Source: a virus
Virus genome (UHGV): UHGV-0122054
Direction: 5' to 3' (one strand)
DNA: 32,224 nt
Shown here: piece by piece, positions 29,617-29,958 of the stretch
Numbering within the stretch: the stretch's first letter is position 1
Layout: every line of letters starts with the position of its first letter
Made by a program: the position numbers and the translations under genes
Notes under the pieces: model-generated
Told to the model about the DNA's origin: nothing
Seen by the model: the letters and a program-made list of their open reading frames with translations, nothing else
Databases searched by the model: none

Positions 29617-29828
29617 AACATAAAAAAATCCCGCAGTGATCGCGGAGCTGCGGGGACAGACAAATGAAGATCAATGTTAAGGAGTTGTTTTTGTTACTCG
29701 GGCAAAAAAACACTAACGCAGCGAAATTATAAGCGCCACAGTCAGTGTGTGAAAATGTGAAGATATTCAGAATTTTTATGCCATTACCGGTTTTAACCAA
29801 CAGGATTATCGGTGGGCATGAAAGAAAA

Positions 29829-29861
29829 CCCCGGTATCTGCTGATACCGGGGTTTCTCTTT
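29829..29861. terminator. Strong hairpin/terminator in the I-J intergenic insert
   Basis: 10-bp perfect stem CCCCGGTATC/GATACCGGGG, 4-nt loop, followed by TTTCTCTTT and preceded by an A-run. Confidence 0.55.
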
Positions 29862-29958
29862 AGCATGGCAGAAATGTGTTTCATGCTTTTCGGGCGAAGG
29901 ATATCCGACTTCTGTACGGAATGGCAAGTGGCGGTTAATTTATTCAGGGGAAGGCTGT

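Follow-up and report, generated by a model that had tools for sequence, protein, structure and literature searches.

The closest described relative of the locus analysed here is the gene for PasB, pathogenicity-associated small RNA (sRNA) B, which was found by RIL-seq and validated by northern blot in EPEC E2348/69 (PMC8550237). In that strain, PasB is an 83-nt transcript of the minus strand (NC_011601.1, 1466343..1466261) and lies between E2348C_1436 and E2348C_1437 (PMC8550237, Table S6). PasB is more abundant after overnight static growth in LB than in mid-log DMEM cultures, and its level depends strongly on Hfq, with log2(delta-hfq/wt) values of -6.8 and -2.4 (PMC8550237). PasB takes part in 37 RIL-seq interactions, with partners drawn from both the core and the accessory genome; no EcOnc homologue is given for it (PMC8550237). 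The baseMean values of PasB in E2348/69 are 482 and 1082, whereas those of the adjacent tail genes are 2-15 (PMC8550237); the RNA is therefore transcribed on its own in the lysogen. A further report proposed that the seed lies in a single-stranded stretch just upstream of the terminator and stated that position 27 distinguishes PasB from PasB-2 (bioRxiv 10.64898/2026.05.13.724894).

AgvB and AsxR of EHEC (EcOnc01-03) resemble PasB in being Hfq-binding sRNAs that lambdoid prophages carry at a cargo insertion site. However, their genes are found close to the lysis genes, downstream of PR'; the RNAs measure 51-60 nt and have a conserved 3' domain in common, and PasB is without a CACAACA GcvB-target motif. 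Phage morons form another class of prophage cargo, reportedly described by Juhala et al. in 2000 and by Hendrix, with lom and bor of lambda said to be examples; sodC cargo in tail regions belongs to the same comparison. The last comparison is with lambda itself. The original prediction took I and J to be adjacent in that phage, but 60 bp separate them (15445-15504; locus L224), and this short spacer has a hairpin of its own, AAACCGCC-TGCG-GGCGGTTTT, which is followed by a T-run and stands 26 nt before J. To our knowledge, no role has been documented for a hairpin before J, even in lambda.

The window analysed here is a 32,224-nt stretch of a viral genome (UHGV-0122054). Its right end holds the tail region of a lambda-like prophage, with H (24015-27257), M, L, K, I and J all on the plus strand. 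In the annotations of near-identical phage records, gene I is named "tail tip assembly protein I". Between the stop codon of I and the start codon of J, the spacer measures 342 bp (29617-29958). Its GC content is 0.415-0.43, against 0.54-0.63 in the flanks (200-bp windows), which bears out the AT-rich insert that had been proposed between these two genes. Of 5426 complete E. coli genomes, 1612 (~30%) contain the spacer, with no annotated feature under it. The left half of the spacer is the gene for PasB, a previously described sRNA, and the finding is in this respect mostly known. The spacer as a whole is very probably a mosaic, in which a PasB module and a variable upstream region of J, with its pre-J hairpin, meet at a cargo hotspot (Table 1). 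The initial observation is thus confirmed, and its reading as sRNA cargo is right in kind and mistaken in architecture.

Table 1. Positions of the features in and around the I-J spacer (window coordinates).
Feature	Position	Strand	Details and basis
Tail assembly gene I, 226 aa	28936..29616	+	ORF list; stop codon TAA 29614-29616 is the left spacer boundary
PasB sRNA	29622..29704	-	Equivalent of the published 83-nt E2348/69 transcript; probe match, Table S6 of PMC8550237, alignment
PasB Rho-independent terminator (predicted)	29622..29654	-	7-bp GC-rich stem 29654-29648/29636-29630, 11-nt loop, U7 29628-29622
PasB single-stranded body	29655..29695	-	Folds; 19-allele consensus structure
Possible 5' extension of PasB	29705..29719	-	Promoter scan and inference; predicted start ~29719, giving a ~98-nt primary transcript
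Predicted sigma-70 promoter of PasB	29726..29753	-	-35 TTCACA 29753..29748, 16-bp spacer, -10 TATAAT 29731..29726; 11/12 consensus
Invariant 24-mer GTGAAAATGTGAAGATATTCAGAA	29749..29772	.	Junction where PasB alleles and right-hand modules reassort; contains the CRP-like site
Predicted stem-loop AUGCC-AUUACCGGU...AUCGGUGGGCAU	29775..29822	+	Directly before the strong hairpin; fold
Right-hand module "type A", about 176 bp	29780..29958	+	Genome comparison, relatives' variants
Strong hairpin, 10-bp perfect stem flanked by A-run and T-run	29820..29861	.	Sequence, fold, comparisons
47-bp segment with the strong hairpin	29828..29874	.	Absent in two relatives (L031, L085)
Weak second hairpin GCATG...CATGC, then TTTT	29863..29890	+	Becomes a better 8-bp hairpin in the 47-bp-deleted relatives
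Weak promoter-like site TTGCCA-18-TATCCT, 9/12	29898..29927	-	Promoter scan only
J ribosome-binding site GGGGAAGG (29947-29954) and start ATG (29959)	29947..29961	+	Right spacer boundary

The published northern probe for PasB is AATCCCGCAGTGATCGCGGAGCT (PMC8550237, Table S6), and it has one exact match in the window, at 29627-29649, and nowhere else. In an alignment to NC_011601.1, the window and E2348/69 are identical over 29617-29772 but for one base, at 29678. The two PasB sequences therefore agree at 82 of 83 nt. Their sole difference is at position 27, counted from the published 5' end (29704), where the RNA has A here and C in E2348/69. Because this is the position that differs, the window carries a PasB-2-like allele at 29704..29622. 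The two loci also share the strand, the place between lambdoid tail genes I and J and opposite to them, the terminator and the upstream promoter region; they differ in the right-hand module of the spacer, which is about 74 bp in E2348/69 vs 176 bp in the window. In E2348/69, the annotated tail assembly protein ends at 1466255 and gpJ starts at 1466496; in the window, the 3' end of PasB lies 6 nt from the I stop codon. The discrete ~83-nt Hfq-dependent transcript is known from the E2348/69 allele, one base apart from that of the window and in a non-type-A context. PasB is kept, terminator included, in all 78 close relatives of this I gene.

Several other identities were considered. Probes for the other Pas sRNAs, PasA, PasC and PasD, have no match in the window. 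Rfam has no PasB family; a scan of the whole window gave no hit at gathering thresholds over the spacer, and a search of 29550-30020 with E up to 10 returned noise-level terminator look-alikes only (SSRC34_2, STnc310 and CopA, all far under thresholds). A CA-rich tract had suggested an anti-sRNA of the AgvB/AsxR kind. This candidate was rejected: those RNAs are found at PR' and are shorter, the location here is the tail operon, and the Rfam models RF02702/RF02703 give no hit over 29550-30020, either at the gathering threshold or with E up to 10. In the EHEC Hfq-CRAC supplement (PMC4104026), a search for tail-gene or ECs2236/2237 entries brought up nothing relevant.

The left-hand hairpin with a T-run on the minus strand, which was part of the original prediction, is there: CCCGCAG (29630-29636) faces CTGCGGG (29648-29654), and the A7 run that precedes this stem on the plus strand (29622-29628) becomes the U7 tail of the minus-strand RNA. 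With a folding energy of -12.6 kcal/mol (z = -1.96, 8/200 shuffles as good), the hairpin alone is only modestly above chance. PasB as a whole folds no better than shuffles (z about -0.9); this is what an open seed leads one to expect, but folding lends the assignment no independent support. In the window, the body of the RNA begins with an A-R-N tract, AACAAAAACAAC (29695..29684), and continues through CUCCUU (29684..29679) into a variable, seed-containing stretch before the terminator, with the invariant core AUCUU. This arrangement of a 3' stem-loop and poly-U with an open seed region directly upstream agrees with the published description (bioRxiv 10.64898/2026.05.13.724894).

The PasB family was assembled from annotated phage records and two IMG/VR scans, one anchored on the PasB terminator and the other on the 24-mer upstream of the promoter, and comprises 166 loci with 36 distinct RNA sequences. 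The 5' stem, the middle region and the terminator loop differ between its alleles, which keep the terminator stem, the U-tail, the AUCUU core and a tract of A-R-N type (AACAAAAACAAC here; AAGAAUAAU in a divergent allele). The consensus fold of 19 diverse alleles opens with a weak 5' stem, stays unpaired in the middle and closes with the invariant terminator stem; it has one covarying pair. The terminator is likely an Hfq-binding module. To judge from these motifs, the A-R-N tract and the U-tail together suggest binding to both Hfq faces.

The promoter predicted upstream of PasB keeps its -10 and -35 elements in most alleles. Measured from the start that this promoter predicts, the published 5' end (29704 equivalent), which derives from RNA-seq coverage, lies 15 nt downstream. 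The gap reflects either processing of the PasB RNA or imprecision in one of the two positions. As a separate observation, the published 5' end falls inside a U7 run, where there may be a processing site.

A CRP-like site, TGTGAAGATATTCAGA, abuts the PasB -35 element (29756-29771; 22-mer 29753-29774) and matches at 9/10 core and 14/16 arm positions. In the 32-kb window, nothing else matches TGTGA-N6-TCACA with at most one mismatch, and chance alone would yield about one such match. The site is kept at the same spacing in the most divergent PasB alleles, whose neighbouring sequence has changed. Canonical CRP sites are centred at -41.5, -61.5 and so on. The centre here is at about -44.5 from the predicted PasB start, which is not a canonical class II position, and CRP control is thus only a lead. 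The preference of PasB expression for LB over DMEM is compatible with such control and is no proof of it. If true, CRP control would make PasB a nutrient-sensing prophage sRNA.

Beyond the PasB promoter, the spacer changes character from relative to relative. E2348/69 diverges from the window right after 29779; its spacer is 240 bp long, with a right part of about 74 bp. The corresponding part of the window, type A, is the commonest of at least five right-hand types found across the loci. It occurs in 1446 of 5426 complete E. coli genomes at 95-100% identity (at least 99% in 1442 of 1451 records). Within these complete genomes type A is found only at the I-J locus, and it adjoins PasB in the loci examined. 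A sensitive BLAST search of complete E. coli genomes with the right module yielded only the 95-100% identical copies, and neither paralogues nor divergent matches. PasB alleles and right-hand types are found in many combinations, which marks them as independent modules that are joined at the invariant 24-mer (29749-29772).

This modularity bears on the proposal that the two opposed hairpins delimit a single self-contained transcription unit. The spacer does hold an independently transcribed sRNA gene, PasB. However, the two hairpins do not bracket one unit: the architecture fails because the right-hand hairpin belongs to a separate module, which recombines independently of the PasB allele.

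The right-hand hairpin itself was correctly located at 29829-29861 on the plus strand, with a 10-bp perfect stem and a T-run. It consists of CCCCGGTATC (29829-29838), the loop TGCT and GATACCGGGG (29843-29852), followed by the tail TTTCTCTTT (29853-29861). On the plus strand it reaches -27.1 kcal/mol (z = -7.8, 0/200 shuffles as good), and the A-run that precedes it (29820-29828) makes it terminator-like on the minus strand too (-26 kcal/mol, z = -7.3). The hairpin has the GC-rich stem-loop and following U-tract of an intrinsic terminator, with an interrupted T-run (TTTCTCTTT). It escaped a simple terminator scan because the stem is prolonged into the tail by A-T pairs. Judged by sequence and fold, it looks like a bidirectional intrinsic terminator.

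Type A is ~100 bp longer than the short right-hand types, and the additional length includes the stem-loop at 29775-29822 and the 47-bp hairpin segment. This segment is bounded by an imperfect direct repeat, GCATGAAAGAAA (29816-29827) and GCATGGCAGAAA (29863-29874), and the 47-bp difference between relatives arose either when the hairpin was inserted or through a deletion between the repeats. The right-hand palindrome was sought in 185,579 species genomes; apart from one E. albertii contig, only unrelated palindromes due to chance came up. The strong hairpin is therefore no dispersed mobile element.

A plus-strand hairpin with a T-run stands before J in each of the right-hand types, and each type has its own. 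For the hairpin of the short types, 98.8% of cells are paired, and one of its pairs is C-G in four sequences, U-A in four and U-G in one; support for this hairpin is modest, as 24/500 shuffles do as well. The lambda-type hairpin is kept in 80 lambda-like IMG/VR loci (L305-L384). These PasB-less junctions came from a query with lambda J, whereas an IMG/VR query with the I protein found only relatives of 96-99% identity, all with PasB. Comparison of I-J junctions, which had been put forward as a check on the original prediction, placed PasB, with its conserved terminator stem, in some relatives and found it absent from lambda and the 80 lambda-like loci.

Since hairpins are present in all types and in lambda, it is the junction itself that is characterised by a terminator-like hairpin before J. 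On this comparison of sequences, the strong hairpin is best taken as the local version of a generic plus-strand hairpin before J. Like its lambda counterpart, it lies on the plus strand, is GC-rich, is followed by a T-run and precedes the J ribosome-binding site by a short distance. The two have no sequence similarity and differ in their distance from the J start (98 nt in the window, 26 nt in lambda), and the hairpin in the window, unlike that of lambda, is terminator-like on both strands. In the lysogen, the strong hairpin would stop non-antiterminated transcription from entering J, including any that comes from the AT-rich PasB promoter region. During lytic growth, Q-modified polymerase would be expected to read through the pre-J hairpin. 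In type A, the strong hairpin could also keep minus-strand transcripts from running on into the PasB promoter. A linked proposal, in which PasB is under the control of cAMP-CRP or another factor through TGTGA-N6-TCAGA and the pre-J hairpin is a general, hitherto unnoticed feature of lambda-like tail operons that insulates J and the cargo beyond it, expanded here into a structured element of ~100 nt that is maybe an RNA gene, is tentative, and we hold it to be more doubtful than probable.

The right module may instead encode a second sRNA with the strong hairpin as its terminator, either on the plus strand (~100 nt, ~29763-29861), where two stem-loops would make up an RNA that diverges from the PasB promoter region, or on the minus strand (~70 nt, from 29927..29898). 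Over 29763-29870, the plus strand forms two strong hairpins (-42.6 kcal/mol, z = -5.6), and the terminator-like character of the strong hairpin on both strands would serve a transcript in either direction. Convergent sRNA pairs are known at the lambdoid PR' cargo site (PMC4104026), and the type A module is 99-100% conserved in nearly all of ~1450 genomes. However, the near-identity of these copies leaves no covariation to test. The two strands also differ in their promoters: none on the plus strand reaches 9/12, whereas the minus strand has a 9/12 promoter-like site upstream (29898..29927), which, speculatively, could drive a ~70-nt RNA ending at the strong hairpin if it is active. Both U-tracts are interrupted, the short spacer types leave only ~45-60 nt on the plus strand, and Rfam gives the right module no match that rises above noise. 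No intergenic entry with a pasB prefix is listed for the E2348/69 spacer in Table S5 of PMC8550237, a weak argument because entries under other names would be missed. All told, we consider a second sRNA unlikely, and a local version of the generic pre-J hairpin remains the preferred reading of this structure.

For PasB itself, the proposed mechanism follows that of the E2348/69 RNA. A sigma-70 promoter of its own would drive PasB transcription on the strand opposite the tail genes, and the RNA would end at the left hairpin with its U7 tail. The U-tail and the AACAAAAACAAC (A-R-N) tract would hold Hfq, and PasB would act in trans by base pairing through the single-stranded stretch upstream of the terminator. 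The position of the gene allows for a different mode, in which PasB acts mainly in cis by pairing with the I-J part of the late tail mRNA and thereby altering its processing or the expression of J. PasB is fully complementary to this intergenic part of the late transcript, and it lies antisense within the late operon, at a distance of 6 nt from I and 255 nt from J in all relatives examined. Nonetheless, it overlaps neither a coding sequence nor the J ribosome-binding site, RIL-seq gave it many trans partners (PMC8550237), and the tail genes are essentially silent in E2348/69, where PasB is abundant. A mainly cis-acting PasB is therefore quite improbable, but cis and trans modes are not mutually exclusive. 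Action in trans is the mode we favour.

The I-J junction is a cargo hotspot. Two relatives (L238 and L278), with I-J spacers of 850-900 bp, carry sodC, a minus-strand gene for a Cu,Zn superoxide dismutase, between PasB and J (Pfam Sod_Cu, E = 8e-32). Five lambda-like loci (L311, L356, L364, L368 and L374) have an AT-rich plus-strand ORF of ~112 aa at the junction (224-700 in L311); it has a lipoprotein-type signal (…LTGC…) and a hairpin of its own, GCCGCC-TTTT-GGCGGC, with a T-run just before the J ribosome-binding site. In some loci, the junction has been altered by IS insertions or deletions. In L278, the PasB promoter region has been replaced, and PasB may be read through from sodC there.

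Set against morons, PasB shares the form of a lower-GC autonomous promoter-gene-terminator unit between conserved late genes, its promoter and terminator being predicted here. The predicted 11/12 sigma-70 promoter and the terminator-like hairpin flank PasB, the unit is absent from lambda and the 80 lambda-like loci, and its GC content is 0.42 vs about 0.58. Expression from a repressed prophage is a further likeness, seen for PasB in the E2348/69 data, as is the presence of other cargo, sodC and the lipoprotein ORF, at the same junction in relatives. The PasB cargo differs from morons in being non-coding and in lying on the strand opposite the late operon.

A recombination hotspot with many module combinations and with IS insertions or deletions in some loci could also leave behind non-functional debris or decayed cargo, in which the hairpins are incidental. 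For the spacer as a whole we regard this as very improbable, and for the PasB module (29617 to about 29779) it is already contradicted. The PasB RNA is abundant and Hfq-dependent in E2348/69; its promoter, terminator and seed core are conserved across alleles that are 80% identical overall; and its terminator, as noted above, is kept in every close relative of this I gene. A mosaic of functional cargo and a pre-J hairpin remains the reading that we prefer.

That the spacer codes for a small protein, through the plus-strand ORFs of 66/77 aa (29745/29778-29978) or 22 aa (29665-29733), is scarcely credible: these ORFs exist, and phage records annotate the 66-aa ORF as hypothetical (phage ASU11, ON416862.2, ASU11_gp9c) and a 32-aa ORF antisense to PasB (PV340549.1, XSB41643.1), but the three longer spacer ORFs have no PHROG match (the 22-aa ORF was judged by allele comparison only), the 66-aa ORF takes in the palindromic hairpin, overlaps with the start of J and loses its frame in relatives through 1-nt indels (L008, L016 group) and the 47-bp deletion, and the PasB-antisense ORF has no ATG in the AAGATTAGAG and GTTACGAAGAT alleles and shifts frame with the length of the A-run (6-9). 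The original prediction was right to distrust the long ORFs that cross the spacer, and the "hypothetical proteins" of phage records over the right module and antisense to PasB are probably spurious.

The main value of these results is in annotation. PasB is in none of the inspected phage or E. coli collection annotations, and its gene, with promoter, terminator and allele, can now be entered where there are blanks or spurious ORFs. PasB is among the better-connected accessory-genome sRNAs in EPEC and is also found in O157:H7 and ST131 strains, and its alleles and regulation may bear on host physiology. O157:H7 and ST131 JJ1886 are examples with a spacer identical to that of the window. The junction also gains a framework that can be applied to other prophages: a cargo hotspot with independently reassorting modules and a hairpin before J in all variants. 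Beyond the known PasB, the analysis makes two minor and unproven additions, the conserved CRP-like site and the ~100 bp of extra structured sequence in the right module. Nothing here alters the known workings of such sRNAs.

Other RNA features lie elsewhere in the window. Two tandem copies of the STnc100 sRNA (Rfam RF02076, 136 and 165 bits) are found on the plus strand at 7200-7390 and 7668-7877, just downstream of three tRNA genes (6875-7121). Finally, a sok-type antitoxin RNA (Rfam RF01794, 120 bits) at 2551-2726, also on the plus strand, implies that the prophage has a type I toxin-antitoxin locus of the hok/sok kind.
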